DNA of 64,000 nucleotides, from NCBI GenBank assembly GCA_965203515.1, contig OZ241907.1:1594129-1658128 (forward strand). The letters run 5' to 3'. Below the pieces are notes generated by a model that saw only the letters and a program-made list of their open reading frames with translations, was not told where the DNA came from and searched no databases. This DNA is from Spirochaetia bacterium. GTDB taxonomy: Bacteria > Spirochaetota > Spirochaetia > SZUA-6 > Bin103. Positions 456-60,270 of the stretch are shown here, in pieces (position 1 is the stretch's first letter; every line of letters begins with the position of its first letter). The translations under genes were made by a program, and so were the position numbers.

Positions 456-2699
456 TCACTCGTCCCCTCCTACCTGCACCCGAAGCTGCTGGCCGGCCAG
501 GGTCTGGCGCGCCCAGAACAGGTTCTGGCTCGCGTCGTTGCCGCCCGCCACCAGGTTCGCGGTGCCGGTCGCGGTGGTGCCGCCGCTCGGCGCCGCCGTA
601 AAGGTCACGGTTGGCGCGGTCACGTAGCCGCTCCCCCCGTTGGTAATCTCCACCGACCGGATGACGTATTCGAAGACCGCGGTGCCGACCGCCCTGGTGC
701 CGCCGGTCGGCGCCGCCGTAAAGGAGACGGTCGGGGCGGAGGTGTAGCCGCTGCCGGGGTTGGTGACCGTCGCCGACGGAACGGCGTAGACCACGCTGGC
801 GGTGGCGGTCGCCCCGCTGCCGCCACCGCCGGAAAAGGAGACGGTGGGCGCCGAGGTGTAGCCGCTCCCCGCGGTCCCGGCCGTCACCGAGCCGACCCCG
901 TAGTTCATCACCGCGGTGCCGGTCGCCGCGGTGCCGCCGGACGGCGCCGAAAAGGTCACGGTGGGCGCCGAGGTGTAGCCGCTCCCCCCGGCGGTGACCA
1001 TCACCTCATCCGCCTCGACGACCACGGTCGCGGTGGCGGCCGCCCCGCTGCCGCCGCCGCCGGAGAAGGAGACGGTGGGCGCCGAGGTGTAGCCGCTCCC
1101 CCCGCTGGTGACGTCAACCCCGGTGATGGTGCTGCCCATCACCGCGCGGTAGCCGGCGCCGCTGCCGCCGCCGCCGGTAAAGGTGATCGTGGGGGCGGAG
1201 GTGTAGCCGCTCCCCGCGTTGGTGACGTCGACCCCTCGAATGTTGGAGTACATTCTCACGTTGAACGCTGCCCCCGTGCCTACCGTAATGGAGACCGTGG
1301 GGGGCGAGGTGTAGCCGCGCCCCCGGTTGGTGAATACGAGGCGGTCCGCCCGCCCGTCTGAATGCCTGCTCAAGGTGGCGGTTGCCCTGGTGCCGCCGGA
1401 CGGCGGCGCCGAGAGGGTCACGACGGAGGCCGACGTGTAACCGCTGCCGTCGGCGGTTTTCGGCGCGCTCTGGACGGCGTCGGGCCCCCACGCGGTGCCG
1501 GTCGCGGTGGTGCCGCCGGCCCGTTGTGGGGCCGAGAAGGTCGCGGTCGGGACCGAGGTGTAGCCGCTCCCGTACTGATTGCCGATCCTCGTCACGGAAG
1601 CGACGCTGTCGGGCCCGGTCGCGGCGGCGGCAGCTCCGCTGCCGCCGCCGCCGGAGAAGGAGACGGTGGGGGGCGAGGTGTAGCCGCTGCCGGCGGTCCC
1701 GACGTTCACCGAAGTGACGGCCCCGCGCGTCGTCGCGGTGGCGGTCGCGCCGCTGCCGCCGCCGCCCGAAATGGTGACCGTGGGCGCCCCCGTATAGCCC
1801 GCTCCCCGGGTATCGAGCGTCACCGAAGCGACGCGGCCGCTGAGCGCCGCGGTGCCGGCCGCGTCGGTGCCGCCGGCCGGCGCCGCCGAGAAGGAGACGG
1901 TGGGCGCCGAGGTGTAGCCGCTGCCGGCGGTATCCATGTCCACCGAAACGACGCTGCCGCTGATATCCGCGGTGGCGGCCGCGCCACTGCCGCCGCCGCC
2001 GGAAAAGGAGATGGTGGGCGCCGAGTTGTAGCCGGCGCCGGCGGTCGTGACGTTCACCGAACCGACGCCGCCGCCGCCCGCTACGTCGGCGGTTGCCCGG
2101 GTGCCGCCGGCCGGCGGCGCCGCCAAGGTCACGCTGGGCGCCGAGGTGTAGCCGCTGCCCCGCTCGGTAATCGTGACCGACTCGACGGTGTCCGAGGCGC
2201 CCGACTGATCCGGGGCGGTGAGCACCAGCACGATCGAGCCCGCGCTCACTTCGGCGCCAACAGTCCACTGCGCGCCTGAGATGTCGTCGGCGAAGGCCGG
2301 CGCGGTCGCCATGCTCGTGAACGGCAGTTCGTTGCCGCCGATCGACACGGTCACCGTTTCGCCCTCGGCGCCGGTGATCCCGTCCCAGGCGAACGGCTCG
2401 GAGCGGATCGTCAAGGCGCTCGGGTCCGCTGCGTCAGGCAACGGCAGCGCCGATGACCAGGCATCATCCCCGATGTCCCAGCGCTGCTCGGCCGCCGGCG
2501 AAGTCGGGGCCGGCGTGGTCGGCGACCCGCCATTGCCGCCGGCGCCTCCGCTCCCTCCATTGCCGCCCGCGCCGCCCGCGCCGGCGCCGGTCGCGACCGG
2601 CGGGGCCGTCTGCTGGCACGCCAGCAGGGCGATGCCGGTGACTGCGGCCAGCGCCAGAAGCGCGGCCTTGCTGCTCATACCTTTGACCTTCCTTGCCAC
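456..2699 (-). CDS. Lipoprotein with 14 GSGYTSAPTV-type beta repeats (paralog 1)
   Basis: RBS AGGAGG before GTG 2699 (alternative ATG 2678); signal peptide ending LLA-C; Gly-rich linker; conserved N-domain; 14 ~40-aa repeats; C-terminal NLFWARQTLAG motif shared with two other genes in the window. Confidence 0.85.
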   Translation of the reverse strand: MARKVKGMSSKAALLALAAVTGIALLACQQTAPPVATGAGAGGAGGNGGSGGAGGNGGSPTTPAPTSPAAEQRWDIGDDAWSSALPLPDAADPSALTIRSEPFAWDGITGAEGETVTVSIGGNELPFTSMATAPAFADDISGAQWTVGAEVSAGSIVLVLTAPDQSGASDTVESVTITERGSGYTSAPSVTLAAPPAGGTRATADVAGGGGVGSVNVTTAGAGYNSAPTISFSGGGGSGAAATADISGSVVSVDMDTAGSGYTSAPTVSFSAAPAGGTDAAGTAALSGRVASVTLDTRGAGYTGAPTVTISGGGGSGATATATTRGAVTSVNVGTAGSGYTSPPTVSFSGGGGSGAAAAATGPDSVASVTRIGNQYGSGYTSVPTATFSAPQRAGGTTATGTAWGPDAVQSAPKTADGSGYTSASVVTLSAPPSGGTRATATLSRHSDGRADRLVFTNRGRGYTSPPTVSITVGTGAAFNVRMYSNIRGVDVTNAGSGYTSAPTITFTGGGGSGAGYRAVMGSTITGVDVTSGGSGYTSAPTVSFSGGGGSGAAATATVVVEADEVMVTAGGSGYTSAPTVTFSAPSGGTAATGTAVMNYGVGSVTAGTAGSGYTSAPTVSFSGGGGSGATATASVVYAVPSATVTNPGSGYTSAPTVSFTAAPTGGTRAVGTAVFEYVIRSVEITNGGSGYVTAPTVTFTAAPSGGTTATGTANLVAGGNDASQNLFWARQTLAGQQLRVQVGGDE

Positions 2700-2764
2700 T
2701 TGATTCCTTCCTCCTGAGTGCGCCGGGCCGGAGCTGCCGCGGCCGGCCAGAATCTTCGGTCTAT

Positions 2765-2787
2765 GGGGGGGGGGGGGGGGGGGGGGG
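2765..2787. repeat. G23 homopolymer (C23 on the sense strand) in the 5' leader of lipoprotein paralog 1
   Basis: Counted directly: 23 consecutive G. Confidence 0.9.
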
Positions 2788-2799
2788 AGCATGCGTTTC

Positions 2800-2828
2800 A
2801 GTATCGGCGTCGGTCGAATCGGTGTCAA
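2800..2828 (-). promoter_or_regulatory. Sigma70-type promoter for lipoprotein paralog 1
   Basis: TTGACA (2828-2823), 17-nt spacer, GATACT (2805-2800) on the minus strand; the C23 tract begins 12 nt past the -10. Confidence 0.7.
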
Positions 2829-2836
2829 CGCAGAGG

Positions 2837-3496
2837 TCAGTCGAGAAGATTGCGCGACCGCAGCGCCTCCAGTATCTTGCCGACGACCGCGTGCTGGTCG
2901 AGGTCTTCGGTGTCGACGACGCAGTCGGCTTGCGCGGCGTCGTCGATGTCGATGTCGTACAGCCGCAGATAGCGGCGGCGGTCGCGGCGGTCGCGCACGC
3001 CGGTGGCAGCGAGCGCGGCGCGATACGATATCGCCTCCCGCGACGCGATGCGCGCCGCCCGCGTCTGCTGAGACGCCTCCAGGTAGACCGACAGATCCTG
3101 CTCGTCGAGTAGCCAGATCGCCAGCCGCGTGCCGACCACGCACCCGCCTTCGGCGGCAAGCTCCACCAGCCGGTGGTCCAGATCGTGATCGACCGATTGA
3201 TCGTACTCGGCCAGTTCCCAGAGCTGCTCGAAGGTCAATCCGCGCTCGCGCGCCAAGTCGCGCAGGGTGAAGTTGATCAGCCGCAAGCCGAGCCGTTCGG
3301 CGACCAGGCGCGACACGGTGGAGTTGCCGCAGCCCGACTTGCCGGAGATCGTGATCACCAGCCGGCCGGCGCGGCCGCTCATCCGGCCATCTTCGCCCCG
3401 CGGCGCCGCCGAGGAGCGGGTCGCCGCGCGATCGCTCGACGCCGGCCGATCGCTCGACGCCGGCCGGTCGCTCGACGCCGGCCGGTCACTCGACAT
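2837..3496 (-). CDS. cmk: Cytidylate kinase (archaeal-type/Cmk2-like)
   Basis: ITISGKSGCGNSTVS P-loop variant, 'VVGTRLAIW', 'RDRRDRRRYLRLYDID'. Start may be ATG 3496 or the later 'MSGR' ATG. Confidence 0.8.
   Translation of the reverse strand: MSSDRPASSDRPASSDRPASSDRAATRSSAAPRGEDGRMSGRAGRLVITISGKSGCGNSTVSRLVAERLGLRLINFTLRDLARERGLTFEQLWELAEYDQSVDHDLDHRLVELAAEGGCVVGTRLAIWLLDEQDLSVYLEASQQTRAARIASREAISYRAALAATGVRDRRDRRRYLRLYDIDIDDAAQADCVVDTEDLDQHAVVGKILEALRSRNLLD
3429..3493. repeat. 18-bp tandem repeat (~3.5 copies, SSDRPA) at the cmk 5' end
   Basis: cgatcgctcgacgccggc unit repeated with minor changes. Confidence 0.8.
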
Positions 3497-3501
3497 GACG
3501 G

Positions 3502-4386
3502 TCACTCCACATTGCGTAGCTGCTCGCGCATGCGCTCGACGTTCTCCTTGACCGCCAGCACGTGGCCGTCGACGTCGGCCGACGCCGCCTTGGCGACGAT
3601 CGTATTGGCCTCGCGGAGCACCTCCTGACAATAGAACTCGAGCTTCTTGCCGTGCGGGCCCTCGACGCCGGCCATGCCGTCGCGCATGCCGTTCAGGTGC
3701 GCGCGCAGTCGCTGCAGCTCCTCGTTGACGTCGGACCGCGCCAACAGCAGGGCGACCGCGGGCACGACCCGGTCGGCGGCGGCCTCGGAGGCCAGCAGCC
3801 GGTCGATCCGTGCCTTCACGTCGCCCTCCAACCGTTCCTGCCACGCCGCCGCCAGGCTGGAGAGCCGGCCCGCCTCCGCCTCCACCCGTTGCAGACAGGC
3901 CGACAGATCGGCGGCCAGCTCCGCCCCTTCCCGCTCGCGCTCGGCGTCCAGCCGCTGCAGAGCCTGCTCGGCCGCCTCCAGCGCGCCGGCTCGGACCGCG
4001 GCGCCCGCGTGGTCCTCGCTCGGTTCCGCCTCGATCACGCCCAGGCCAAGCTGCCGGTCGGCGGCCAGCAGGTCCCGTACCGTGAGCTCCCCGCTCAGGC
4101 CTGCCGCGCGGGCGATCCCGCGCAGCAGGTCGGCGGCGGCCGCCGCCCGCGCCGCGCTTACGCGCGGCCGCGCCGCCGCGCCGGTCACCCGGATCTGCAG
4201 CTCCACGCGCCCGCGCGTCATCCGCCCGGCGATCAGCGCCCGCAGCGCCGGTTCCAGGGCGGCGAGCCCCTGCGGTACCGAGACGCCGGCATCCAGGAAG
4301 CGGTTGTTGTAGCTGCGGACTTCGGCGGTGATGTCGATCCCGTCGACGTGGCGTTCGGCACGGCCGAAACCGGTCATGCTCTTCAT
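3502..4386 (-). CDS. yicC: YicC/YloC family endoribonuclease
   Basis: MKSMTGFGR..EVRSYNNRFLD..GKKLEFYCQEVLREANTI..MREQLRNVE, the typical YicC termini. Confidence 0.95.
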   Translation of the reverse strand: MKSMTGFGRAERHVDGIDITAEVRSYNNRFLDAGVSVPQGLAALEPALRALIAGRMTRGRVELQIRVTGAAARPRVSAARAAAAADLLRGIARAAGLSGELTVRDLLAADRQLGLGVIEAEPSEDHAGAAVRAGALEAAEQALQRLDAEREREGAELAADLSACLQRVEAEAGRLSSLAAAWQERLEGDVKARIDRLLASEAAADRVVPAVALLLARSDVNEELQRLRAHLNGMRDGMAGVEGPHGKKLEFYCQEVLREANTIVAKAASADVDGHVLAVKENVERMREQLRNVE

Positions 4387-4405
4387 CGGGCGGGGCCTGC
4401 CTCAG

Positions 4406-5899
4406 CTACCGCTCTGCAGGCGCGCCCTGCAGGCGTTCGCGCAGTCGTTCGCCCAGCTTCCAGTTATCCCCGGCGCCCATGGTCACGAAGACGTCGCCCG
4501 GCCGTACCGAACGCCGCGCGATCTCCAGGGACTCCGGGTCGTCGACGCCCGGCGCATAGCGGACCGCCGGATGCCGGCGTTCGACGGCGCGGTACAGGTC
4601 GCGCCCCGATATACCGTGGTCGTTGCGCTCGCGGGCCGACGCATAGATGTCGTGCAGTATGACCCGCTCGGCATCGCCGAAGACAGTGGCGAAGTCGTCC
4701 AGCAGCCGTTCGGTACGGGAAAAGGTGTGCGGCATGAAGTCGACGACCAGCGGCCGGCCGGCAAAGAAGCGCCGCAGCCCGCTCAGGGTGACGCGTATCT
4801 CGGTGGGGTGGTGTCCGTAGTCTTCGACGAACGTGACGCCGCCCGCATCGCCGACCACCTCGCTGCGGCGCCGCGTGCCGGCGAACCGGGACAGCCCCCG
4901 TGATACGGCGTCGAAGGCGGGCGCGCCGCCGCGCAGGCGTCGGTACGCGGCGGACCCGGCCGCGACCGCCAGCGCCGCGTCCTTGGCGGAGTGGAGCCCC
5001 GGCACCCGCAGGGAGAAATCGCCGGGATACGCCGCCAGCCGGAAGCCGGTCCGGCCGGCGGCCAGCGTGACGCCGGCCAGCCGATAGGGGCCGGCGGCGG
5101 CGCGCCCGACCGGCGTGCGCACCACGTCGGTCCGCTCGGCGCCGACCGTCGCGGCGACGTCGACGGCGCCCGCATCGTCGGCGTCGTAGATCAGCTCGCC
5201 GCCGTGCGGCAGCCGCCGGCAGAACTCCACGAAGGCGGCCGCGGTGTCGCGGTAGTCGGCGAAGTAATCGACGTGCTCCCACTCCACGCCGGAAAGCACG
5301 ATGCGGTCCGGGTGGTAGTGGAGGAAGTGGCGCCGGTACTCGCAGGTCTCGGCGGCGAGCAATTCGGCGCCGCGGTTCAGGGTGCTGCGGTCGCCGAGGC
5401 TGCGGGCCGGGCTGCCGGCCAGCACCGTGGCCGGCAGCTCGAACGCATCGAGCAGGGTGCCGAGCATGGCGGTGATGGTGGTCTTGCCGTGGGTGCCGCA
5501 TACCGCGATCGCTTCGCACTGCGCGGACAGCGCTCCCAACGCCTGCGGGTAGTTGAGCAGCGGCAGACCCGCTTCCCGCGCCGCGCGCAGCTCCGGGTGG
5601 CGCTCCGGGTCGTACGCCGCCGAGTGGACCACCAGATCGACGCCGCGCACGTTGCCGGGGTCGAACCGAAGCACCGGCACGCCGATCCGTCCCAGAACCG
5701 ACGTGGTGAAGAACGGCTCGTCGACGTCGGAGCCGGTGACGACCGCGCCGCGGGCCAGCAAGACCTCCGCGAACGCCGCCATACCCTGTCCGGCGATGCC
5801 GACCAGGTGCACGGCGCGCCCGCGGAGACGGCGGAACAGCGCCGTGATCGCATCGCCGGCGGCTGCGCCGTCCCACCGACCGGGCTCAGGCGGTTGCAA
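4406..5899 (-). CDS. murC: UDP-N-acetylmuramate--L-alanine ligase
   Basis: VHLVGIAGQGM, GTHGKTT, EDYGHHPTEI, FMPHTFSRT, TMGAGD. Start approximate. Confidence 0.93.
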   Translation of the reverse strand: MQPPEPGRWDGAAAGDAITALFRRLRGRAVHLVGIAGQGMAAFAEVLLARGAVVTGSDVDEPFFTTSVLGRIGVPVLRFDPGNVRGVDLVVHSAAYDPERHPELRAAREAGLPLLNYPQALGALSAQCEAIAVCGTHGKTTITAMLGTLLDAFELPATVLAGSPARSLGDRSTLNRGAELLAAETCEYRRHFLHYHPDRIVLSGVEWEHVDYFADYRDTAAAFVEFCRRLPHGGELIYDADDAGAVDVAATVGAERTDVVRTPVGRAAAGPYRLAGVTLAAGRTGFRLAAYPGDFSLRVPGLHSAKDAALAVAAGSAAYRRLRGGAPAFDAVSRGLSRFAGTRRRSEVVGDAGGVTFVEDYGHHPTEIRVTLSGLRRFFAGRPLVVDFMPHTFSRTERLLDDFATVFGDAERVILHDIYASARERNDHGISGRDLYRAVERRHPAVRYAPGVDDPESLEIARRSVRPGDVFVTMGAGDNWKLGERLRERLQGAPAER

Positions 5900-5902
5900 C
5901 GT

Positions 5903-5974
<72 letters not shown>

Positions 5975-6040
5975 AGAAAGGGGTACCACAGCGCGTTCGG
6001 CGCTCCGGCGCACGAACTATGGAACCGGCGCGCACGCATG

Positions 6041-6571
6041 TCAACCGCCGGCGCGACTCTGCGCGTTGAGCGCGTCATGCCGCCTGCGGATCGAATCCGG
6101 CCAGCGGCTCTTGATGTACGACATCGCGGCGATGATCTCCTCGTCGGACAGGACGCCGCGATAGGCCGGCATGGCGGAACGGTAATCGAGCCCGGCGAAC
6201 CGCTGCATGCCGTACTTGGTCAGGTCGAACAGCACCTGGTCGGTGTGATGCCACGTATGCCCGGTCTCGTCGTGCGGTGGAGCGGGGAGCAATCCGTCGG
6301 CTCCCCGCTGCCGCCAGTTCGCCTGTCCTTCCAGGTTGGCGCCGTGGCACTGCGCGCACGACAGGTCGTAGACGTAACGGCCCCGTTCGACGATGCGGCG
6401 ATCGTCCGGCCGGAAGAGGGCAGCCTGCCGCTCCGGCCGCTCCGGCGGCGTGGGCTGCCGGCCGGGATGCGGCCGGAAGACGATGACCGCAGCGATGCCG
6501 GCGGCCGCCAACGCGGCCAGCCCCGCGGCAAGAACGACCGGTCGCCTCATCGCCCGCATGTTATTCACCAC
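6041..6571 (-). CDS. Membrane-anchored monoheme cytochrome c (copper-cluster associated type)
   Basis: N-terminal TM helix, CAQCH heme motif, 'APPHDETGHTWHH', 'SAMPAY'. Confidence 0.88.
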   Translation of the reverse strand: MVNNMRAMRRPVVLAAGLAALAAAGIAAVIVFRPHPGRQPTPPERPERQAALFRPDDRRIVERGRYVYDLSCAQCHGANLEGQANWRQRGADGLLPAPPHDETGHTWHHTDQVLFDLTKYGMQRFAGLDYRSAMPAYRGVLSDEEIIAAMSYIKSRWPDSIRRRHDALNAQSRAGG

Positions 6572-6622
6572 CCGCCCGCCCTTTCAACCACCCGCCGGTT
6601 CCGGCATCTCCCGGCGTCGTAC

Positions 6623-6653
6623 TTGACCTTCCCGTTCCGGGACGGTTGACCAT
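6623..6653 (+). promoter_or_regulatory. CueR/MerR-type promoter of copA
   Basis: TTGACC (6623-6628), 19-nt spacer, GACCAT (6648-6653); dyad ACCTTCC-N7-GGACGGT (6626-6646) is one mismatch from the CueR box ACCTTCC-N7-GGAAGGT. Confidence 0.8.
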
Positions 6654-6660
6654 GGCGCCC

Positions 6661-8963
<2,303 letters not shown>

Positions 8964-8967
<4 letters not shown>

Positions 8968-10010: not shown

Positions 10011-10045
10011 CTTGGCAGGTCTCGCTCAAGACGCATACAGAGCGG

Positions 10046-11143: not shown

Positions 11144-11730
11144 CGATCGATATCTTGTATCTTGAGCGCCTGCATCGTCTTGCGAGCCCACTCCCCGCCT
11201 TGTTGGAAATCGCGTTCGGTGAGCCGGGGAAGATCGCGGAACACGATCTGGGACACGCGTTTCTTCGTTCCGGAAGGATCACGTTGATAGCCGATGACCC
11301 AACGGAAGATACCGCCTTCCCGCAACGTTGCGGCATCTCCGTCGGAGATTTCGGCCAATGGAATGGTCGCCTCTTCCTCCTCATGCGATGACCCGGCGGT
11401 CAAATCGACCAGCCTCGCCACGAACTCGCCGCCATGTATCTCCAATACATATCCCTCCCATTCCTGCAGAGCGTGAAATGAGGATCGCGGGACATTGGCG
11501 CCGTATTGCTCAGGAAAGGAAAGCGTCGAAGGTTCGACGGCCGGTGATCTCACCGTTCTGGTGCCAAAAACGTCGTCCTGCGCAGGAGATGTCCCTGTCA
11601 GCGCCGATTGTATCGCCTCCTCGGGCACGCGGGGAACGAGAGGCGGTACTCCGCTGACCGTCTCCTCAACGGCGCCGCCCGCATCCTCTGCGAAACTGTC
11701 AGCGGTCACCGACTGGCCGGAATGCGCCAT
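11140..11730 (-). CDS. Hypothetical protein: low-complexity N-terminus plus beta-rich C-terminal domain
   Basis: Acidic/Pro/Ser-rich first ~85 aa, then LQEWEGYVLEI..FVARLVDLT..GGIFRWVIGY..RVSQIVFRDLP; tightly coupled to both neighbours. Confidence 0.75.
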   Translation of the reverse strand: MAHSGQSVTADSFAEDAGGAVEETVSGVPPLVPRVPEEAIQSALTGTSPAQDDVFGTRTVRSPAVEPSTLSFPEQYGANVPRSSFHALQEWEGYVLEIHGGEFVARLVDLTAGSSHEEEEATIPLAEISDGDAATLREGGIFRWVIGYQRDPSGTKKRVSQIVFRDLPRLTERDFQQGGEWARKTMQALKIQDIDR

Positions 11731-32291: not shown

Positions 32292-33571
32292 CTAATCCGC
32301 TGTCTGCGCCGGAATTCTCACCAGAAGCCGCTTGCCCGCCAGCGTCTGGCGCGCCCAGAACAGGTTGTGGTATTGATCGTTGCCCTCCTCCGCCAGTATT
32401 GCCCTGGCGGTCGCGCCGCTGCCCCCTCCGCCCGTAATCGTAACGGCGGGCGGTGACGGGTAACCGCTCCCCCCGTTCGTGACCGTCACCGACGTGACCT
32501 GGGTTTGCAGCACCGCGCTGCCGGTTGCCGTCCGGGGAGAACCACCGCCCGTCGAGGTCTGAAAGGTCACGGTCGGGGCGGACGTGTAGCCGCTCCCGGG
32601 GTTCGTGATCGTCACTCCGGTTACTTTTCGGTGCGCCACCTCCATGCGGGCGGCCGCACCGCTGCCCCCTCCGCCCGAGAACGTAATGGCAGGGGGAGAC
32701 GTGAGGCTGTAGCCGCTCCCCCGGTCCCCCATGTCATAGGCGTAAACTCGACCGTTCTGTATAAGGATCGTTACGGTTGCCTGGGTGCCGCCTGAGCCGG
32801 CCGGCGGAGGGTCGATCGTCGCGGTTGGGGGAGAAGTGTAACCGCTCCCCAGGTTCGAGAAAATCGGTCTGACTACTTCGACTGTCATCGTCGTCGTTCC
32901 GGTCGCCGTGGTGCCGCCGGACGGCGCCGCCCCGAACGTCACGGATGGGCAACACCCGGAGTAATAATAGCCGCGTTCCGACCCCATCTGCACTCGCGCC
33001 ACGCCGCCGGGCCCCACCGCGGCGCCTGTTGCCGCGGTGCCGCCTGCCGGCGGCGCCGCGATCGTCACGGTGGGAACCGAGGTGTAGCCGCTCCCCCCGT
33101 TCGTGAGCCTCACCGACTCCACGAAGCCCAGGTTTTCGGTCTGATCCGGAGCGGTGAGCACCAGCGTCACCGCGCCCGCCCGAACCTCGGCGGCAACCGA
33201 CCACTCCGCGCCGGAGATGTCGGACGCGAAGACCGGCTCCGTACTCGTGCTCGTGAACGGCAGATCGTGTCCGTCGATCGAAACGTTCACTTCGGCGCCG
33301 GCGGTGATCGGCTCCCAGGCATACGTGGAACGGTTGGACACTTCGCCCACCAGATTCAGTTCATCATTACCAAAGTCCGCCGCGCTGATCGTCCAGCTCC
33401 TCTCTGCCGGTTGCGGAGTTGGCGTCGGCTCACTCGGTGGCTGCCCCCCCCCCCCCCCCCCCCTTGGGCCGGGTCGGTGGTTGTGGCGGGCGTGCGCGCC
33501 GCCGGCGCGCACGCCATCAGGGAGGCGACAGCGACGGCCAGCAACAGCGACAACCTCAAGTCTCTACCCAC
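32292..33571 (-). CDS. Lipoprotein with 6 GSGYTS-type repeats (paralog 2), frameshifted at a poly-G tract
   Basis: RBS GGAGGAGG, GTG 33571, signal peptide ending LMA-C in one frame (ORF 33356-33640); the body is in another frame (ORF 32292-33512). The span of 1280 nt is 1 nt short of in-frame, with the shift at G20. Confidence 0.82.
33444..33463. repeat. C20 (sense G20) homopolymer in the coding linker of paralog 2; out of frame
   Basis: CAA-G20-CAG; G21 or G18 would restore the frame. Confidence 0.9.
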
Positions 33572-50274: not shown

Positions 50275-50283
50275 GGCGCGATT

Positions 50284-51168: not shown

Positions 51169-51184
51169 CGGTCCATCATAGAGC

Positions 51185-52096: not shown

Positions 52097-52142
52097 GGCG
52101 CCACGATAGCACGCCGGCGCGTCCCCGGCGGCGGCCGATCGT

Positions 52143-53027: not shown

Positions 53028-54196
53028 GCCGATCCTCCGTCACCGCCGCGGCGGTGCTCCCGTATGTAGTCCCAGTCGATCCGGTATCCCATGCCCGGCT
53101 GCATCGGCACGCGCACGCAGCCGTCGGCGTCGAGCGGGTCGCACAGTTCCTGCAGGTACGGCTCCGGCGTCTCGTAATCGATGCCCGGCGCCAGCAGACC
53201 GCGCTCGTAGTAGCGGCAGGTATCCTCGCTGGTGGCGCCCAGCACCTGCAGGTTGCCGAAGCCGGCCATGTGGATCTCCAGGCGCACGCCGAACGCCTCG
53301 CAGACCGCGGCGGTCTTCAGGCAACCGGTCACGCCGCCGCGCAGCACGTCGATGCGGCTCATGTCGGCGGCCCCGCGCCGTATCCATTCGGCCCGCGTGT
53401 AGAGGCTGCCGGCCGCGATCTCCGGCGCCAGAATCGGGATCGCCAGCTCCGCCGACAGCTTCTCATACGCCGCCACCTGATACTCGTTCAGCGGGTGCTC
53501 GTACCAGACGAACCCCAACTCCTCCAGCCGCCGCCCGACCCAGACCGCCTCTTCGTACGTCCGGTACGTGCCCCACACGTCGAAGCTCAGTTCCATTTCC
53601 GGCCCTACCGCGTCGCGGACCGCCCGGCACGCGGCTACGTCATGCTCGACGTGCGACGGGCGGCCGGGATCGGGCCGGCCGGTCGCCGGGTCCCAGAAGT
53701 AGTAGGGGTGTATCTTGTAGTGGCGGTAGCCCTGCCGCTTGCAGGCGGCCGCGTGCTGCGCGTACACCTCCGGCGGCCCCAGGTTCGGGAAGGTGCTGGC
53801 GTAGGCGCGGACGCGGTCCCGGCAGCCGCCGGCCAGCTTGCAGACCGGGACGCCGAGCGTCCGCCCCTGCAGGTCCCAGAGCGCGTTGTCCAGCACGCTG
53901 ATCAGGTGCTCGGGCAAATTGGCCACCCACAGCCAGCGCCAGAACTTCTCCCGATCGAACGGGTCGTGGCCGACCACCAGATCGCGGATGCGACCGGTCA
54001 GCAGTTGGCGGTCGGCGGCGTTCAGGCCGATCTGGTCGCCATGGCCGCCGCCGCCGAAGTAGCAGCCTTCGGCTCCCTGGTCGGTGACCACGCGGGTCAC
54101 CGTCTGCAGCGTATCGGCCGGCGGGCGCACCTCCGCGTCGTGGAACCCCCGCCGCCGAACGGTGAAGGGAATCACCTGCACGTCGCTGATCTTCAT
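53024..54196 (-). CDS. Mandelate racemase/enolase superfamily protein
   Basis: DNALWDL, YKIH, WYEHP, GGVTG, LEIH, YYERG. Confidence 0.9.
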   Translation of the reverse strand: MKISDVQVIPFTVRRRGFHDAEVRPPADTLQTVTRVVTDQGAEGCYFGGGGHGDQIGLNAADRQLLTGRIRDLVVGHDPFDREKFWRWLWVANLPEHLISVLDNALWDLQGRTLGVPVCKLAGGCRDRVRAYASTFPNLGPPEVYAQHAAACKRQGYRHYKIHPYYFWDPATGRPDPGRPSHVEHDVAACRAVRDAVGPEMELSFDVWGTYRTYEEAVWVGRRLEELGFVWYEHPLNEYQVAAYEKLSAELAIPILAPEIAAGSLYTRAEWIRRGAADMSRIDVLRGGVTGCLKTAAVCEAFGVRLEIHMAGFGNLQVLGATSEDTCRYYERGLLAPGIDYETPEPYLQELCDPLDADGCVRVPMQPGMGYRIDWDYIREHRRGGDGGSA

Positions 54197-54218
54197 CCGA
54201 TACGCTCGGCCCGGCGTA

Positions 54219-54292
54219 TGGGCGATACTGGACTCGAACCAGTGACCCCTAGCATGTCAAGCTAGTACTCTAGCCATCTGAGCTAATCGCCC
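54219..54292 (-). tRNA. tRNA-Val(GAC)
   Basis: GGGCGATTAGCTCAGATGGCTAGAGTACTAGCTTGACATGCTAGGGGTCACTGGTTCGAGTCCAGTATCGCCCA. Confidence 0.95.
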
Positions 54293-54326
54293 CAGGATGG
54301 AACCTTCCGCGTGCGGCGCGGCGCTG

Positions 54327-54617
54327 TCAAGCGCCCCACGCGATCGCGTCGATCGCCGACGCCAAGTCCACGTCCAGCCGCGTGATGCGATCCCCGACGT
54401 CGTGCGTGCTGAGGCGGATGCGGACCGTGCCGTACACGTTCCATATCTCGGGGTGGTGGTTGGCCGCTTCGGCGGCGAAGGCGATGCGGACGATGAAGGA
54501 GACCGCCTCACGGAAGCTCCCGAACCGGAACTCCCGCTGCAGGGCGTCCCCGTCCCGGCTCCAGCCGTCCAGGCTCGCTACGGCCTCCCGGATCTGATCG
54601 TCGGAGAGGGCTGCCAT
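54327..54617 (-). CDS. Pterin-4a-carbinolamine dehydratase
   Basis: AEAANHHPE, LSTHD, ITRLDVDLA. Confidence 0.93.
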   Translation of the reverse strand: MAALSDDQIREAVASLDGWSRDGDALQREFRFGSFREAVSFIVRIAFAAEAANHHPEIWNVYGTVRIRLSTHDVGDRITRLDVDLASAIDAIAWGA

Positions 54618-54678
54618 CGGCACAGCCTACCCGCCGCCCGCCCCGCCCGTCCACCGGCCCTGGCCCTCCGGGACCGAC

Positions 54679-54707
54679 TTGACCCGCGTGCCGGGATGTG
54701 GTACAAG
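54679..54707 (+). promoter_or_regulatory. Putative promoter of tRNA-Asn
   Basis: TTGACC, 17-nt spacer ending TGTGG, TACAAG. Confidence 0.6.
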
Positions 54708-54745
54708 TGGATCGGCGTTGGGCGGCGCGCCGCCCAACGCCCCGA

Positions 54746-54818
54746 TCCCCTGTAGCTCAGTTGGTAGAGCGGATGGCTGTTAACCATCATGTCGCATGTT
54801 CGAGTCATGCCGGGGGAG
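54746..54818 (+). tRNA. tRNA-Asn(GUU)
   Basis: TCCCCTGTAGCTCAGTTGGTAGAGCGGATGGCTGTTAACCATCATGTCGCATGTTCGAGTCATGCCGGGGGAG. Confidence 0.95.
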
Positions 54819-55205
54819 CTACCACCGGAGGCGCAACCTGACGCGCGTTACGGCAATGCACCTGCTCCCCATCGACCGCACCGTTCGGAGGCCATGGCAT
54901 GGATCGGATTCCCACGACGATCTGGGGTGCGGGCTACCCTGTGAAGATAGGGCATGAGAAGAGGAGAGAATGACCTGCTGTATGTCGACAAGGACGGACT
55001 GGTGCACTTTCCGCCGTCTTGGACCGAGCAGGCGAAAGAGAACTGGTTCGCTAACCTGCGGGACAAGAATGAAGATGAGACGCCGCCAGGTATGCCGACC
55101 GTCTACATCACCGGCATCTATGGCGCCTCGGGGAACGTCCCACGGGTCGACTCCGAATGGGATGGTTCACTTCCCGCCGGACTGGACAGAGGAAGCCAAG
55201 GCAGC

Positions 55206-55670
55206 ATGGCTCACATAAACCGCCGTCCGGTCTGGTTCGTCGGGGCCAAGTGGCACGACCACGAGCCGCCGGATCAGACCGAACGTTTCCTGGCGGAAGG
55301 AGTATGGGAAGGATACGCCGATCAGCACCTCGATGACGTCAAGTCGGTCCAGCGCGGCGACAGGATCGTCATCAAATCGACGTACACCCGGAAGCACGGG
55401 TTGCCGTTCGACAATCGTGGAAAACCGGTCTCGACAATGATGATCAAGGCCGTCGGCGAAGTCACGGAGAACCCCCGCGATGGCCGTCGATTGAAGGTGA
55501 CCTGGAAGCCGGTGCTCCCCCCGCGGGAGTGGTACTTCTACACCTATCGCAGGACGGTCTGGAAAGTGCAGCGCTCGTCGGAAGCATCGTCGAAAGCAGA
55601 CGCGCTGATCCGGTTCGCGCTCGACGGAGAGGAGCAGGACTTCGAGACCTTCCTGAAAGCGCCATGCTAG
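55206..55670 (+). CDS. Detached N-terminal (putative DNA-recognition) domain of McrB
   Basis: VWFVGA..DQTERFLAEGVW..GDRIVIKSTYTRKHGLPFDNRG..REWYFYT; I recall this domain fused to McrB-type AAA+ proteins. The ORF is open upstream to 54954. Confidence 0.65.
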   Translation: MAHINRRPVWFVGAKWHDHEPPDQTERFLAEGVWEGYADQHLDDVKSVQRGDRIVIKSTYTRKHGLPFDNRGKPVSTMMIKAVGEVTENPRDGRRLKVTWKPVLPPREWYFYTYRRTVWKVQRSSEASSKADALIRFALDGEEQDFETFLKAPC

Positions 55671-57346
55671 GGGTACAGGCATCGGTTGAATGGGCCGCGT
55701 TCTTCTCCGATATGGCTGACAATCTGCTGCAATACCGGGACCACCGCGAGGCGTTAATCACTAAGGTGATCGCCATTTCCCGGAGTCTGGGAATGGCGTC
55801 TAGTGACAAGTTCGCGGGTGACACTGAGGGAGACATCCAGGATATCTGCCCGTTTTCTACATTCGGATGCTTCAACAGATCCAATCAGGCGGATCCCAAA
55901 CGGATGACCTTCGCCGAAGAGCTTGCGAGCTTTCTGCAAGTGCGAAGGCCGGTGCCAACGTTGAACTCGAACGAAGATGGTATCCCGTCACTCGATCCGA
56001 AAAGGCTCTGGGTCTTCCCTTTCGAAAAGGATCGGAACCGAGACGACATCGACTCTTTATGGGCACTCTTCGTGGACGCCATCAAACTCGCCGATGCGGG
56101 TGATGGAGATGATGACAACGTCCGCTCGGCATTCGTACGGTCTTACGACAAGATATGTCCACGAAAGGGCAAAGGTGTCATCAAGGGCGTCGGCACCACT
56201 ACACTTACCATCGGACTCTACTGGATACGTCCATATATATTTCCGCCTTTGGATAAGCACTCGATCAAGTACATAAAAGAGACCCTCGGGGAACATGTAC
56301 CGGAGGAGCCGAAGGCCCAAGACTACCTAGGACTCAGGGACAGACTACTGGAACGGTTCGATAATCCGGATGCTCCGGTCCACTCGTTCCCGGAGTTGAC
56401 GCGGTCAGCGTATAACCGAAGCGACTCCAACGGTGACGACCCCGGTCCAGAGCCGCCGCCCGCCGGGTACACCATCGACCATATTCTCGCCGATGGCTGC
56501 TTCCTTTCACGGGAGTCGCTCGAGAAAGTGATTGGCCGGCTGCGGACTCGGAAGAACCTGATTCTGCAGGGACCGCCGGGGACGGGCAAGACCTGGTTGG
56601 CCAAGAGATTGGCGTTCGCCTTGCTCGGCCGCAAGGATGAGGGCCGAATCCGCCATCTCCAATTTCACCCCAACCTGTCATACGAGGACTTCGTGCGCGG
56701 CCATCGTCCCGTCGAAGGACGACTGGAGCTGACCGACGGGCCGTTCCTGAAGATCACGCAGGAAGCGCGGAACGATCCCGACCACGCCTACGTTGTCGTC
56801 ATCGAGGAGATCAATCGCGGGAACCCGGCGCAGATCTTCGGAGAGGTGCTCACGTTGTTGGAGGCCGACAAGCGGACGCCGGACGAGGCGCTGGCGCTCG
56901 CCTTTCCCCGTGCTGAGGACGAGCGGGTCCACGTTCCGCCAAACGTCTATCTGATCGGCACCATGAACGTCGCCGACCGGTCGCTGGCCCTGGTCGATCT
57001 GGCGCTGCGCCGCCGGTTCGCGTTCGTCGATCTGGAGCCGGTCTTCGGCGTGTCGTGGCGCCGGTGGATGCGGGATCATGGAGGACTTGCCGACGCCTTC
57101 CTGCGGAGGATCGAGCAACGCATGATCGCTCTGAACGAGGAGATATCCGCCGATCACGGTCTCGGCAGGCAGTTCCGGGTGGGCCACAGCTATCTTACGG
57201 TGCCGCCGGAGACCCGCATCGCCAACCGGGAAGCGTGGTACCGCGAGGTGGTCGAAACGGAGATCGGGCCGCTGCTCCGCGAATACTGGTTCGACCAGCC
57301 CGACAAGGCCGATGCTCAGGAGAAGCACCTGCTCACGGACTTCTGA
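55664..57346 (+). CDS. mcrB: McrB-family AAA+ GTPase
   Basis: NLILQGPPGTGKT, QFHPNLSYEDFV, IEEINRG, GTMNVADRS, ALRRRF, GHSY. Confidence 0.92.
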   Translation: MLGVQASVEWAAFFSDMADNLLQYRDHREALITKVIAISRSLGMASSDKFAGDTEGDIQDICPFSTFGCFNRSNQADPKRMTFAEELASFLQVRRPVPTLNSNEDGIPSLDPKRLWVFPFEKDRNRDDIDSLWALFVDAIKLADAGDGDDDNVRSAFVRSYDKICPRKGKGVIKGVGTTTLTIGLYWIRPYIFPPLDKHSIKYIKETLGEHVPEEPKAQDYLGLRDRLLERFDNPDAPVHSFPELTRSAYNRSDSNGDDPGPEPPPAGYTIDHILADGCFLSRESLEKVIGRLRTRKNLILQGPPGTGKTWLAKRLAFALLGRKDEGRIRHLQFHPNLSYEDFVRGHRPVEGRLELTDGPFLKITQEARNDPDHAYVVVIEEINRGNPAQIFGEVLTLLEADKRTPDEALALAFPRAEDERVHVPPNVYLIGTMNVADRSLALVDLALRRRFAFVDLEPVFGVSWRRWMRDHGGLADAFLRRIEQRMIALNEEISADHGLGRQFRVGHSYLTVPPETRIANREAWYREVVETEIGPLLREYWFDQPDKADAQEKHLLTDF

Positions 57347-58503
57347 TGGCGCCCGACGGTACGGCGGCGGCGCGGCCCGCCGCGAGTGAGCCGGCGGTCG
57401 CCGCTGGCCGCGGCAACGTCGGCCGGATTCCGGTCCGCAACATCTGGCTGCTGATGCTGTACGCCTCCCGTCTCTACCGGGAGCTGCCGCCGGCGCGGCG
57501 GGTCGCCATTGAGGATAACCCGGATGAGCTCCCCGACTTGGTAGCGCAGCTCCTTACCCGTGCCGTCGAGCGGCGGCTGCGGCGCAACCTGAGCTTCGCG
57601 TTCCAGGAAACCAGCGCGGACCTGCGGCGGGTGCGCGGCCGCATCGACCTGCTGCGCACCGAACGGCGTCACCTGCTGCGGCGGGGCCGAGTCGCTTGCC
57701 GGTACGAGGAACTGACGGTCGACACGCCGCGCAACCGGTACGTACGGGCCGCGGCGCAGAAGTTGGTCACGGTCGTCGGCGCGGCGCACCTCGTTTCCCG
57801 GTGCCGCGCCGCGGACGCCCGCCTGGAGGCCGCCGGCGTGAGCTCAGACCCGGCCCTGGCCAGCCCGCGGGGGCGGAGCGCCGCCGCCGAGTTGCGGGGA
57901 CGCATGGACCCGGAGGACCGGACCATGATGGCCGCCGCCGAACTCGCCTTCAGCCTTGCGCTGCCAACCGAGACCGCCGGCGGAACCTATCTGCGTTCGC
58001 CCGACCGCGATGAGGTCTGGGCGCGGCGGTTGTTCGAGGCGGCGGTGGGCGGCTTCTACCAGGTAGTGTTGGCGCCAAAGTGGAGCACGCAGACGGGGAG
58101 GCTGATGCGTTGGCAAGTGGACGGCAGCACCTCTCGACTGCGCGAGCTGCTGCCGTCGATGACGGCCGACATAGTGCTCGAATCCCGCGACCGGCGAATC
58201 ATCATCGACACCAAGTTCACGTCGATTGTGACCGCGGGTCACTACCGGCAGGCGACGCTCAGCAGCGAACACCTCTACCAGCTCTACTCCTACGTGCGGT
58301 CTCAGGAGCGACCGGACGATCCGCGGTCGCTCGGCGCGACCGGAATGTTGCTGCACCCGTCAGTCCGGGAAGACGTCTACGAAGCCGCGGTCATTCAGGG
58401 CCACGAAGTGCGCTTCGCCACCGTCGATCTCGCGGCCTGCAGCCGAACGATACGGGAACGGCTGCTGCAGGTGGTGGCCGGAAGCCTGTTCGACCGTGAG
58501 TGA
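57346..58503 (+). CDS. mcrC: McrC restriction endonuclease subunit
   Basis: IPVRNIWLLMLYA, DTPRNR, LFEAAV, ADIVL..IIDTK, LYQLYSY; start overlaps the mcrB stop. Confidence 0.92.
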   Translation: MAPDGTAAARPAASEPAVAAGRGNVGRIPVRNIWLLMLYASRLYRELPPARRVAIEDNPDELPDLVAQLLTRAVERRLRRNLSFAFQETSADLRRVRGRIDLLRTERRHLLRRGRVACRYEELTVDTPRNRYVRAAAQKLVTVVGAAHLVSRCRAADARLEAAGVSSDPALASPRGRSAAAELRGRMDPEDRTMMAAAELAFSLALPTETAGGTYLRSPDRDEVWARRLFEAAVGGFYQVVLAPKWSTQTGRLMRWQVDGSTSRLRELLPSMTADIVLESRDRRIIIDTKFTSIVTAGHYRQATLSSEHLYQLYSYVRSQERPDDPRSLGATGMLLHPSVREDVYEAAVIQGHEVRFATVDLAACSRTIRERLLQVVAGSLFDRE

Positions 58504-58509
58504 CCTGAC

Positions 58510-60270
58510 TCACCCTTCCACTACCTGAACCCGAAGCTGCTTGCCGTACAGCGTTTGGCGCGCCCAATACAGGTTCTGGTACCGATCGTAGCCGCCCTCT
58601 GCCAGTGTTGCCGTGGCTGTCGCGGTGGTGCCGCCTGGCGGCGCGGCCTGAAAGGTAACGGTCGGGGCCAGCAGGTAACCGCTTCCCGGGTTCGTAATCG
58701 TCACTGACGCTACCTCGTATTGCATAGCCGCGGTGGCGGTTGCGGTGGTGCCGCCGGACGGCGCGGCCGTAAAGGAAACGGTGGGGGCGGAGGTGTAGCC
58801 GCTCCCCGCGTTCGTGACCGTCACTGACGCTACCTCGTATTGCATAGCCGCGGTGGCGGCCGCGGTGGTGCCGCCGGACGGCGCGGCCGTGAAGGAAACG
58901 GTGGGGGCGGAGGTGTAGCCGCTCCCCGCGTTCGTGACCGTCACTGACGCTACCTCGTATTGCATAGCCGCGGTGGCGGCTGCGGTGGTGCCGCCGGACG
59001 GCGCGGCCGCAAAGGAAACGGTGGGGGCGGAGGTGTAGCCGTTCCCACCGTTCGTGACCGTCACTGACGTTACGCCGGTTTGCAGCACCGCGGTGGCGGT
59101 CGGGGTGATGCCGATGCCGAGGGGCGCCGAAAAGGTAACGGTCGGGGCCGACGTGTAGCCGCTCCCGGCGTTCGTGATCGTCACGGAAGTGATCTGACCC
59201 GCGGAGTTCCTGGACGCGGTGCCGGTTGCGGTGGTGCCGCCGGACGGCGCGGCCGTAAAGGTCACGGACGGGATATTCAAAATGTAGCCGCTCCCGCCGG
59301 TGTTTATCGTCACCGACGCGACGCTGCCGGGACCTGCCGCGGTGCCGGTTGCGGCAGTGCCGCCGGACGGCGCGGCCGTAAAGGTGACGGACGGGACCGA
59401 GGTGTAGCCGCTCCCGGCAGTCGTTATCGTCACGGCATCGACGCTACCGGACCCCGCCGCGGTACCGGTTGCGGCAGTGCCGCCGGACGGCGCGGCCGTA
59501 AAGGTGACGGACGGGACCGAGGTGTAGCCGCTCCCGGCAGTCGTTATCGTCACGGCATCGACGCTACCGGACCCCGCCGCGGTACCGGTTGCGGCAGTGC
59601 CGCCGGACGGCGCGGCCGAAAAGGTGACGGCGGGGACCGAAGTGTAGCCGCTCCCCGCGTTCGTGATCGTCACGGCATCGACGCTGCCGGACCCCGCCGC
59701 GGTACCGGTTGCGGCAGTGCCGCCGGACGGCGCGGCCGAAAAGGTGACGGCGGGGACCGAGGTGTAGCCGCTCCCCGCGTTGGTGACCGTGACGGACTCG
59801 ACGAAGCCTGCGCTTTCCGTCTGATCCTCGGCGGTGAGCACGAGCACCACTGTGCCCGCCCGGACCTCCGGGGTGACCGTCCACTCCGCACCGGAGATAT
59901 CGGACGCGAAGACCGGCTTCGCACTCGTACTCGTGAACGGCAGCGCATGCCCGCCGATCGAAACGCGCACGTCGTCGCCGCCGGTGATCCGGTCCCAGGC
60001 ATACGGCGCCGAACGGTTGACCGTCTGGCTCAGCAGGTTGGCGTCATCACCAAAGTGCGCCGCGCTGATCGTCCAGCGCTTCTCGGCCGGCTGCGAGGTC
60101 GGCGGCGGCTCGCTCGGTGGCTTACCCCCCCCCCCCCCCCCCCCAGAGCCGGCGTCGGCGGGAGCAGCAGCGGCCGGCCGCGCCGCCTCGCCGCAGGCCA
60201 GCATGGCGATGCCGGCAGCCGCCACGAGCGCGAGCAACGCTGCCTTACGAGCCGGGTGGGCGGGGTTCAT
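58510..60270 (-). CDS. Lipoprotein with 10 GSGYTS-type repeats (paralog 3), in frame
   Basis: RBS GGAGG, ATG 60270, signal peptide ending MLA-C, G20-encoded Gly7 linker, conserved N-domain, 10 repeats, NLYWARQTLYG motif. Confidence 0.88.
   Translation of the reverse strand: MNPAHPARKAALLALVAAAGIAMLACGEAARPAAAAPADAGSGGGGGGGKPPSEPPPTSQPAEKRWTISAAHFGDDANLLSQTVNRSAPYAWDRITGGDDVRVSIGGHALPFTSTSAKPVFASDISGAEWTVTPEVRAGTVVLVLTAEDQTESAGFVESVTVTNAGSGYTSVPAVTFSAAPSGGTAATGTAAGSGSVDAVTITNAGSGYTSVPAVTFSAAPSGGTAATGTAAGSGSVDAVTITTAGSGYTSVPSVTFTAAPSGGTAATGTAAGSGSVDAVTITTAGSGYTSVPSVTFTAAPSGGTAATGTAAGPGSVASVTINTGGSGYILNIPSVTFTAAPSGGTTATGTASRNSAGQITSVTITNAGSGYTSAPTVTFSAPLGIGITPTATAVLQTGVTSVTVTNGGNGYTSAPTVSFAAAPSGGTTAAATAAMQYEVASVTVTNAGSGYTSAPTVSFTAAPSGGTTAAATAAMQYEVASVTVTNAGSGYTSAPTVSFTAAPSGGTTATATAAMQYEVASVTITNPGSGYLLAPTVTFQAAPPGGTTATATATLAEGGYDRYQNLYWARQTLYGKQLRVQVVEG
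58681..59070. repeat. 120-bp near-identical tandem repeat, C-terminal arm of paralog 3
   Basis: Sequence lines recur every 120 bp (e.g. tcactgacgctacctcgtattgcatagccg at 58701, 58821, 58941). Confidence 0.9.
59320..59790. repeat. 120-bp near-identical tandem repeat, N-terminal arm of paralog 3
   Basis: gcggcagtgccgccggacgg at 59351, 59471, 59591, 59711. Confidence 0.9.
60125..60144. repeat. C20 (sense G20) homopolymer in the coding linker of paralog 3; in frame
   Basis: TCT-G20-T-AAG encodes seven Gly codons. Confidence 0.9.

Follow-up and report, generated by a model that had tools for sequence, protein, structure and literature searches.

Phage-type repeats, long G/C tracts and a predicted folded-back stalk in a lipoprotein family of sponge-associated Spirochaetia

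We use sequence comparison and structure prediction to study three lipoprotein genes, here called A, B and C, in a 64,000-nucleotide window of a Spirochaetia genome (contig OZ241907.1, positions 1,594,129 to 1,658,128); the host genome is a single contig of 4,135,234 bp with a GC content of 69.5% (70.7% in the window). The three genes belong to a family, with about 30 members in this genome of a sponge-associated lineage, whose proteins carry repeats of a type found in phage virion proteins and whose loci account for most of the long G/C tracts of the genome. We judge it reasonably probable that this is a phase-variable and length-variable family of surface lipoproteins with a new all-beta architecture, a stalk in which the chain folds back on itself as a hairpin. 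The original prediction, made from the window alone, had described three homologous genes with a lipobox cysteine, a Gly/Pro linker, an N-terminal domain and an NL(F/Y)WARQTL tail, and this description holds for all three genes, which lie on the minus strand. Each protein begins with a lipobox signal peptide, continues through the Gly/Pro linker into a domain of about 95 residues (the N-domain below) and an array of 36-40-residue repeats with the signature GSGY, and ends in the tail NL(F/Y)WARQTL...V. The lipoboxes (ALLAC, SLMAC and AMLAC in A, B and C) each follow a hydrophobic stretch and were assigned with the pattern [LVI][ASTVI][GAS]C expected of Lgt/LspA substrates plus inspection only. 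The features of the three genes are as follows, with the method behind each in brackets.

456-2678, minus strand: gene A (locus F17), lipoprotein with 14 repeats (open reading frame, ORF, and repeat hidden Markov model, HMM)
2616-2630, minus strand: lipobox ALLAC of gene A, Cys codon 2616-2618 (pattern and inspection)
2199-2489, minus strand: N-domain of gene A (tblastn, translation)
525-2198, minus strand: repeat array of gene A, 14 GSGY repeats, 7+7 (repeat HMM)
1350-1370, minus strand: central junction SRHSDGR of gene A (translation)
477-524, minus strand: C-terminal tail NLFWARQTL...V of gene A (translation)
2765-2787, minus strand: 23-nt homopolymer (sense poly-C), 87-109 nt upstream of the gene A ATG (homopolymer scan)
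2800-2828, minus strand: sigma-70-like site TTGACA-17-GATACT, ending 12 nt before the gene A tract (consensus scan)
33464-33571, minus strand: 5' part of gene B (locus F18) with GTG start, signal peptide and lipobox SLMAC, in a frame that differs from that of the body (translation)
33444-33463, minus strand: 20-nt sense poly-G in the Gly linker of gene B (homopolymer scan)
32292-33443, minus strand: body of gene B, with linker, N-domain, 6 repeats and C-tail (ORF and repeat HMM)
33135-33404, minus strand: N-domain of gene B (translation)
32319-32366, minus strand: C-tail of gene B (translation)
32745-32762, minus strand: central junction IQNGRV of gene B (translation; AlphaFold2, AF2, hairpin turn E224-229, QN, E232-238)
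58510-60270, minus strand: gene C (locus F19), lipoprotein with 10 repeats, in frame as assembled (ORF and repeat HMM)
59815-60084, minus strand: N-domain of gene C (tblastn, translation)
58576-59814, minus strand: repeat array of gene C, 10 repeats (repeat HMM, tandem-repeat period)
59194-59214, minus strand: central junction SRNSAGQ of gene C (translation)
58528-58575, minus strand: C-terminal tail NLYWARQTL...V of gene C (translation)
60125-60144, minus strand: 20-nt sense poly-G in the Gly linker of gene C, in frame as assembled (homopolymer scan)
60368-60384, minus strand: 17-nt homopolymer (sense poly-C), 98-114 nt upstream of the gene C ATG (homopolymer scan)

Two of the gene boundaries call for comment. 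The ATG of gene A at 2678 is preceded by a ribosome-binding site, AAGGAAGG; an in-frame GTG at 2699, the start used earlier, is an alternative. Gene B had been taken as one open frame from 32292 to 33571, which is not borne out: the span of 1280 nt is not divisible by three, so that the earlier reading ran across a frame break, and the frameshift lies in the poly-G tract at 33444-33463. With the 20 G of the assembly the body of gene B is out of frame, and it would be in frame with 18 or 21.

The family proves to be far larger than the three members first described. Using tblastn with the three window N-domains, we find 30 N-domain loci in the host genome, three of these in the window. Within the same order the N-domain is present in 5 of 41 genomes, all five from one family, with 30 matches in the host (G000), 32 in G014, 25 in G003, 22 in G019 and 5 in G006, and it was not found in 17 searched genomes of other families; three of the family-bearing relatives are Spirochaetia metagenome-assembled genomes (MAGs) according to their database records. 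When a profile of 22 N-domains is run against 1.84 billion representative proteins, 60 match at E <= 0.001 and 46 at E <= 1e-10, so that the domain is both rare and clade-confined. The locus itself is found in 19 public runs from six studies, labelled as sponge metagenome, marine metagenome, metagenome and two coded organisms, and contigs at least 99% alike to it were recovered from runs X14, X1 and X16.

We now consider the homopolymers at these genes, whose existence and positions are solid. Only four homopolymers of 8 nt or more occur in the window (17-23 nt), and all lie at the three family genes. Over the whole genome the length distribution of G/C runs is bimodal: there are 66 runs of 7 nt, 7 of 8, 3 of 9, 2 of 10, none of 11 and 30 of 12-31 nt, and 20 of these 30 long tracts fall within 600 nt of 19 family loci. 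In eight members the codons of the linker contain a sense poly-G, only a few residues past the lipobox Cys, and in 11 a sense poly-C of at least 12 nt stands upstream of the start, with a further 20-nt tract before F24; gene C alone in the window carries both types. As assembled, one of the eight coding tracts of the host is in frame (gene C) and seven, including that of gene B, are out of frame, and the bodies behind the out-of-frame tracts stay open for 400-730 codons. For the upstream class, the sigma-70-like site of gene A matches the consensus at 10 of 12 positions (one such site found against a shuffle mean of 0.1), and because it ends 12 nt before the tract, the first bases to be transcribed would include the tract; by eye, the tracts of F01, F23 and F27 also have similar hexamers before them.

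The same arrangement is seen in the relatives. Tracts of at least 12 nt number 30, 27, 25 and 24 in the four family-rich genomes and 3 in G006, and six relatives that lack the family have 0-6 of them, though most of their genomes are larger. Upstream poly-C of 9-30 nt is found at 19 of 25 loci in G003 and at 15 of 22 in G019, and G014 has nine loci with linker poly-G and 11 with upstream poly-C. Of the nine coding tracts of G014, which measure 10-16 nt where those of the host measure 12-22 nt, three are in frame. When host members are paired with their G014 counterparts by repeat number and junction pattern, the tract measures 23 nt at gene A and 12 at L031, 20 at gene B and 16 at L016, 21 at F30 and 12 at L014, and 22 at F14 and 11 at L018; F30 and F14 are out of frame in the host and their counterparts L014 and L018 are in frame. 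Metagenomic homologues of the gene B type likewise come in both states, P0006, P0012 and P0013 being in frame with 4-5 Gly while P0003 and P0011 begin in a shifted frame. Closest to the locus itself, a 715-nt contig from run X1 that bridges both gene C tracts has five fewer letters in the linker tract and three fewer in the upstream tract, and one X14 contig shares the five-letter loss at the linker, a hint at most of variation within the sample, which paralogues may confound. Only contigs enter this comparison of runs, since depth is inflated by paralogues and the cover of X5 is incomplete, and it is the bridging X1 contig that we use. On these comparisons the length of the tracts is likely variable and slipped-strand phase variation of the family has fair support; the calls of individual members as ON or OFF are provisional.

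Ten long G/C tracts of the host lie away from the family, at 360525, 1728335, 1874342, 2001352, 2051142, 3054095, 3415727/3415757, 3605600 and 3636389 (G000:C1). Three of them adjoin ORFs that share a similar C-terminal motif (...ATGI.EQ.Y/F..L...), two immediately precede other ORFs whose starts resemble signal peptides (360509 and 3605511), and at one site a C24 and a G17 tract are six bases apart; these tracts are possibly further contingency loci.

Next we turn to the repeats, which we scored with an HMM seeded with gene C and then iterated over the family. The counts of 14, 6 and 10 originally read in A, B and C are recovered. Over a larger set, made up of the host members and 84 loci from four relatives and taking a member as complete when its C-tail is present, the repeat number is even in 85 of 95 complete members from five genomes, and classes of 4, 6, 8, 10, 12 and 14 repeats are each seen several times. 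The original prediction that the count is always even thus stands as a strong tendency and fails as a strict rule, given ten odd members.

The array also divides into two halves. First-half junctions are rich in G, S and P and second-half junctions are hydrophobic or aromatic, as had been predicted, and in each window gene the expected central junction lies between them (1350-1370, 32745-32762 and 59194-59214); in the family this middle junction is longer and turn-like, as in SDGR, SGGQ, QNGR and NSAGQ. When HMMs trained on the two halves of one subfamily are applied to the other proteins, 519 of 586 repeats receive a label consistent with their own half, and among 57 proteins the best split between labels coincides with the midpoint in 27 and is no more than one repeat away from it in 49, with ties broken toward the centre. 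By eye, the turn is exactly central in 23 of the 26 complete members of the host genome. The further claim that the central repeats are the most divergent agrees with the mean pairwise identity, whose minimum lies at the centre in each of the four size classes (for n=14, 0.54/0.57 at R7/R8 against 0.69-0.88 elsewhere). Gene C adds a detail of how such arrays may grow: its DNA has a one-repeat period of 120 nt (9.8 copies, 85% matches) and the layout R1,[R2-4],R5 / R6,[R7-9],R10, with near-identity within R2-R4 and within R7-R9. Separate near-identical triplets in each half suggest that the two arms expanded independently and ended equal in number.

Members at the extremes of size deserve mention. 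F06 (G000:C1:628777-629265) and L043 of G006 are mini-copies that consist of an N-domain, a single chimeric repeat and a C-tail; the repeat starts like a first repeat and ends like a last one, and no signal peptide can be seen in F06. Their make-up suggests that the outermost repeats recombined with each other. At the other end, L066 (G003:C1:1883644-1888144) has at least 28 repeats, twice the maximum of the host genome, and its array extends past the fetched stretch; L089 of G019 resembles it, with at least 14 repeats and no tail within the fetched stretch. The repeat arrays are open in several frames and on both strands (for example at 1114-2279 and 59080-60345 of the window), and the public protein collection returned relatives of 325-435 residues only for a 586-residue query, a sign that gene-calling programs often get members of the family wrong or cut them short.

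What shape would such an array take? AF2 models of the gene B body (with 22 homologues; predicted local distance difference test, pLDDT, 80.7; predicted template modelling score, pTM, 0.51) and of gene C (best model, pLDDT 82.7, pTM 0.47) each place a short hairpin at the central junction. We then co-folded two separate pieces of protein B, residues 1-189 (N-domain, R1 and R2) and 272-383 (R5, R6 and tail), with the central repeat pair omitted. The pieces score 0.68 (runs of 0.70, 0.68 and 0.68) against 0.00 for the best of three controls, a mark that 58 of 80 solved complexes attained, against 2 of 110 mismatched pairs, in a calibration that is rough here, our own alignment having been used. 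Between runs, at least 96% of contacts are shared, with partner pLDDT of at least 87, and for every one of the pairs of lowest predicted error (128:334, 126:336, 108:349, 142:319, 115:345 and 180:281) the sum i+j is about 461, which corresponds to antiparallel pairing about residue 230.5, inside IQNGRV. Because we found no like structure in the PDB, recall of a solved complex by the predictor is unlikely. The co-fold thus supports binding of one arm to the other and falls short of showing it.

Two structural claims had been made at the outset. The split base, in which the C-terminal strand packs into the N-domain, fits the co-fold, where the predicted pairs 17:373 and 56:373 put this strand on N-domain strands. 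For the nested pairing of repeat i with repeat n+1-i speak the antiparallel contacts, the parity and the central turn, as predictions and comparisons, and members with unequal arms speak against it. A folded-back stalk with a split base has fair support.

A few observations on the models and repeats stand apart. The strings of secondary structure (DSSP) of both AF2 models are mirror-symmetric, which we rejected as evidence, since any periodic array gives mirror symmetry; of these strings, just the short central hairpin is informative. In gene A, whether a repeat has the GGGGSG or the AAPSGGT loop is, by eye, uncorrelated between predicted rung partners. Repeat 2 of gene B (about 32940-32990) has G(Y)YY.SGCCP, with two adjacent cysteines, in place of GSGY; this variant is kept in most 6-repeat homologues of alignment A1, and AF2 confidence there is low (pLDDT 62-70).

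Outside the clade, sequence likeness is limited to the repeats. They match 15-17 PHROG virion-protein families per protein (19630, 701, 5342, 460 and 708 among them) with E down to 4e-76, the matches covering repeat stretches only, and 48 BFVD entries at E <= 0.001, mostly structural, baseplate-wedge and fibre proteins of marine phages and cyanophages; the suspected resemblance of the GSGY repeats to phage virion proteins is thereby confirmed. Membership in a PHROG family would take full-length similarity and a phage structural-gene context, and we found neither: the window genes stand singly among genes for a fucosidase, McrBC, an MFS transporter, ThuA and the cytidylate-kinase-like protein described below, and tblastn of gene C against 50,697 phage records gives two short matches only and no full-length relative. 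Pfam has no family for A and B and two sub-threshold matches for C (E 0.25-0.26), NCBIfam has no match, the PDB yields none to phmmer with gene C and a best E of 0.68 (a gyrase fragment) to a profile of alignment A1, and the ESM Atlas has no usable match to the N-domain. Weak matches to the N-domain that are spread over several stretches, mostly without a significant one (P0064, P0076-P0082), have Ig-like repeats (PKD, Big_9) in Pfam, and we do not name the fold of the N-domain from them. Our literature searches turned up no description of GSGY repeats in phages, no phase-variable lipoprotein or contingency-locus system of sponge symbionts and nothing pertinent on the GC content of Spirochaetes MAGs from sponges.

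Two further observations concern the region upstream of gene A. Directly before the 23-nt poly-C of gene A (2765-2830, minus strand) and of its paralogue F01 (G000:C1:120600-120700) stands an ATG which, at the present tract length, is in the lipoprotein frame and would read M-L/H-P7-HRPK... through to the signal peptide; in F23 a stop directly precedes the tract, so that a poly-Pro leader frame is not general. The upstream neighbour (2837-3844, minus strand) encodes a cytidylate-kinase-like protein (PF13189, E 1.5e-19), whose longest ORF has an N-terminal extension with four tandem SDRPAS units.

Putting these elements together, we propose the following picture. The Gly/Pro linker would be a disordered tether next to the lipid anchor; from the N-domain the chain of three-strand repeats would run out and back, with repeat i lying antiparallel on repeat n+1-i, and a C-terminal helix and strand would end it, the strand completing the N-domain to make a base beside the anchor. 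The central repeats and their turn would then form a variable tip, and the length of the stalk would be n/2 rungs. Slipped-strand mispairing at the G/C homopolymers of 10-31 nt would switch copies stochastically: at linker tracts the length would set the reading frame, and at upstream tracts, downstream of a promoter-like site, it would affect transcription or the 5' leader. The proteins may form a surface coat or adhesin layer that varies both in its combination of members and in its length, and that alters what phages, sponge phagocytic cells or surfaces meet. That the proteins are exposed on the surface and help to vary it against phages or host phagocytes is speculative.

How well does this picture of a switching, folded-back stalk stand up to other explanations, and to those of our own observations that weigh against it? 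The hairpin could be an artefact of similar beta-repeats in what is really a linear rod or solenoid with packing between neighbours only, the even counts coming from a two-repeat unit. Several arrays fit such a rod: the DNA of gene A has periods of 231-234 nt (two repeats; Tandem Repeats Finder) besides 114-120 nt, the second half of F11 is an alternating two-repeat unit, and F30 has apparently gained two tandem central repeats. F13 has, by eye, lost two adjacent repeats relative to L015 and is still even, now split 4|6, and with F20 (6|3) and F05 (6|5), their turns also placed by eye, it is one of three members with unequal arms; balanced members similar to these are L015, L007 and L008 (12 repeats) and F03 and L025 (14). 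The ten odd counts are 1 (two mini-copies), 3 (four members), 9 (three) and 11 (one), of which the 3s come from divergent G003 and G019 members where the HMM is weak, and two scored as 9 (F25 and L027) look by eye like 8 with an insertion in one repeat. Paralogues and orthologues are not independent, so the parity counts overstate the evidence. The models have their own weak points, the pTM of B and C being only about 0.5 and the other four of the five AF2 models of gene C scoring 70 or less. The co-fold controls, being unrelated proteins, are blind to the stickiness of the repeats and would miss a generic side-by-side pairing of homologous beta-repeats, and the hairpin is a prediction throughout, drawn from predictors and comparative evidence. 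A linear rod nevertheless seems unlikely to us. Gene C has a one-repeat period and yet carries matched triplets in both halves; each half is a sequence class of its own, the change of class coming at the midpoint or close to it, with a unique turn-like junction in the middle and a V-shaped profile of conservation; and the predicted contacts are strictly antiparallel, in a single register, and include contacts between N-domain and C-tail that a linear rod could not make.

The homopolymers, for their part, could lack any switching role and be artefacts of the assembly or hot spots of mutation, in a family that is decaying and has many pseudogenes. Coding tracts are mostly out of frame (seven of eight in the host, six of nine in G014), and the 4 of 17 in frame over the two genomes fit random length or decay equally well. 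Fragments and truncated copies are present in the host (F06, F07, F08, F12 and F21), long homopolymers are difficult to sequence, and the ON and OFF states rest on homopolymer lengths in single-contig MAGs, which are error-prone if built from long reads. We also found no promoter-like site upstream of gene C by the consensus scan and no RNA run among the public runs that contain the locus, and the upstream tracts, at 10-31 nt, are far longer than the characterised 7-11 nt tracts of T. pallidum. Against an artefact or hot spot, four genomes that were assembled separately, and contigs of other runs as well, have their tracts at matching places in the gene, a single gene family takes up two thirds of the long tracts at two defined positions, their lengths are bimodal (none at 11 nt and 30 at 12-31 nt), family-less relatives have 0-6 of them, and the 400-730 open codons behind out-of-frame tracts argue against old pseudogenes; we regard this explanation as improbable. 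It is more improbable still, to the point where we give it very little credence, that the genes are phage-derived, whether as virion or receptor-binding proteins of a prophage or as prophage-encoded exclusion lipoproteins. The strong PHROG and BFVD similarity invites that thought, and it is confined to the repeats, the N-domain occurring in just 60 clusters of the 1.84 billion representatives; the window genes are single among cellular genes, all have lipobox signal peptides, and the phage records gave only the two short tblastn matches.

The favoured reading of a phase-variable stalk lipoprotein family can be carried further, into a stronger version that we think possible but doubtful: a new all-beta surface spike of tunable length, with matched gain and loss of repeats in its arms, about 30 independently switching copies, exchange of modules between phage and symbiont, and the first contingency system of a sponge symbiont. 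If this were true, matched gain and loss in two arms would be a previously undescribed constraint on the evolution of tandem repeats, and the 19 tract-bearing loci alone would give about half a million ON/OFF combinations. As the repeat is shared with virion proteins of marine phages, symbionts and their phages could be exchanging modules, with this family as the side displayed on the cell, where it might serve as decoy or shield or provide a glycan-binding module common to both. Phase-variable lipoprotein families are textbook material for pathogens (Mycoplasma, Treponema, Neisseria), and a sponge host feeds by phagocytosing bacteria; if the loci do switch, then environmental symbionts of animals would likewise use stochastic variation of their surface as a strategy, with phages or sponge phagocytes as examples of a concrete agent of selection. 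There is structural interest as well, since the family has no relative in Pfam, NCBIfam or the PDB: the GSGY repeat is widespread in marine phage virion proteins with no solved structure found by sequence search, so that the structure of a member of 383 residues would reveal the repeat fold of many unannotated phage structural proteins. Parity and matched arm expansions together predict that the length of the stalk scales as n/2.

How does this family compare with known systems? The nearest by lineage are the tpr genes and tp0126 of Treponema pallidum, which are paralogous envelope-protein genes with a variable G homopolymer at the promoter or transcription start site; that poly-G has 7-11 nt, with the start just downstream, varies within and between isolates, and sets transcription (PMC7864442). 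The likeness lies in a spirochaete with several paralogous envelope genes that carry G/C homopolymers. The differences are that the tracts of the present family are longer (10-31 nt) and include a second class inside a coding linker, that Tpr proteins are putative porins and ours are lipoproteins, with no sequence or Pfam relation found, and that the host is a sponge-associated lineage of 70% GC and not a pathogen. Closer in kind of protein are the Vlp surface lipoproteins of Mycoplasma hyorhinis, which are switched by indels in a promoter homopolymer and vary in size through in-frame tandem repeats (PMC10502178). Compared by description, both are lipoprotein families that combine a homopolymer with size variation by repeat number, and the Vlp tract differs in being poly-A and confined to the promoter. 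We know of no parity constraint or folded-back architecture for the Vlp repeats.

For the predicted architecture, the closest parallel is antigen I/II, a group of streptococcal adhesins (SpaP, SspB, BspA) whose A and P repeat regions intertwine to form a stalk; its tip is variable, and an interaction between the N and C termini locks its base (PMC7732690). This likeness is architectural only, in that the chain is predicted to run out and back with an interaction of N and C termini at the base. The antigen I/II stalk is an alpha-helix wound with a polyproline helix, with a globular V domain and an LPXTG anchor, whereas here both arms would be built of the same beta-repeat, the tip of central repeats, and the lipid anchor is N-terminal. 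The alanine-rich and proline-rich repeat regions, V domain and LPXTG motif of antigen I/II are absent from our three proteins, which also have no Pfam match, and the family belongs to none of tpr, Vlp or antigen I/II. Phage virion proteins with GSGY repeats are the one group related by sequence, through a homologous repeat of about 38 residues and local matches to predicted phage structures; they are large virion components, annotated as baseplate wedge, tail fibre or head closure, without the N-domain, C-tail or lipobox.

The tracts themselves have their broadest precedent in Campylobacter, Neisseria and Bordetella, whose poly-G/C tracts are usually shorter than those described here. Intragenic and intergenic G/C homopolymers of these genera switch surface determinants ON and OFF (PMC8355987, PMC1891110, PMC5320596). 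Those contingency loci belong to vertebrate pathogens and are spread over many unrelated genes, whereas in this sponge-associated host two thirds of the long tracts are gathered at a single lipoprotein family.

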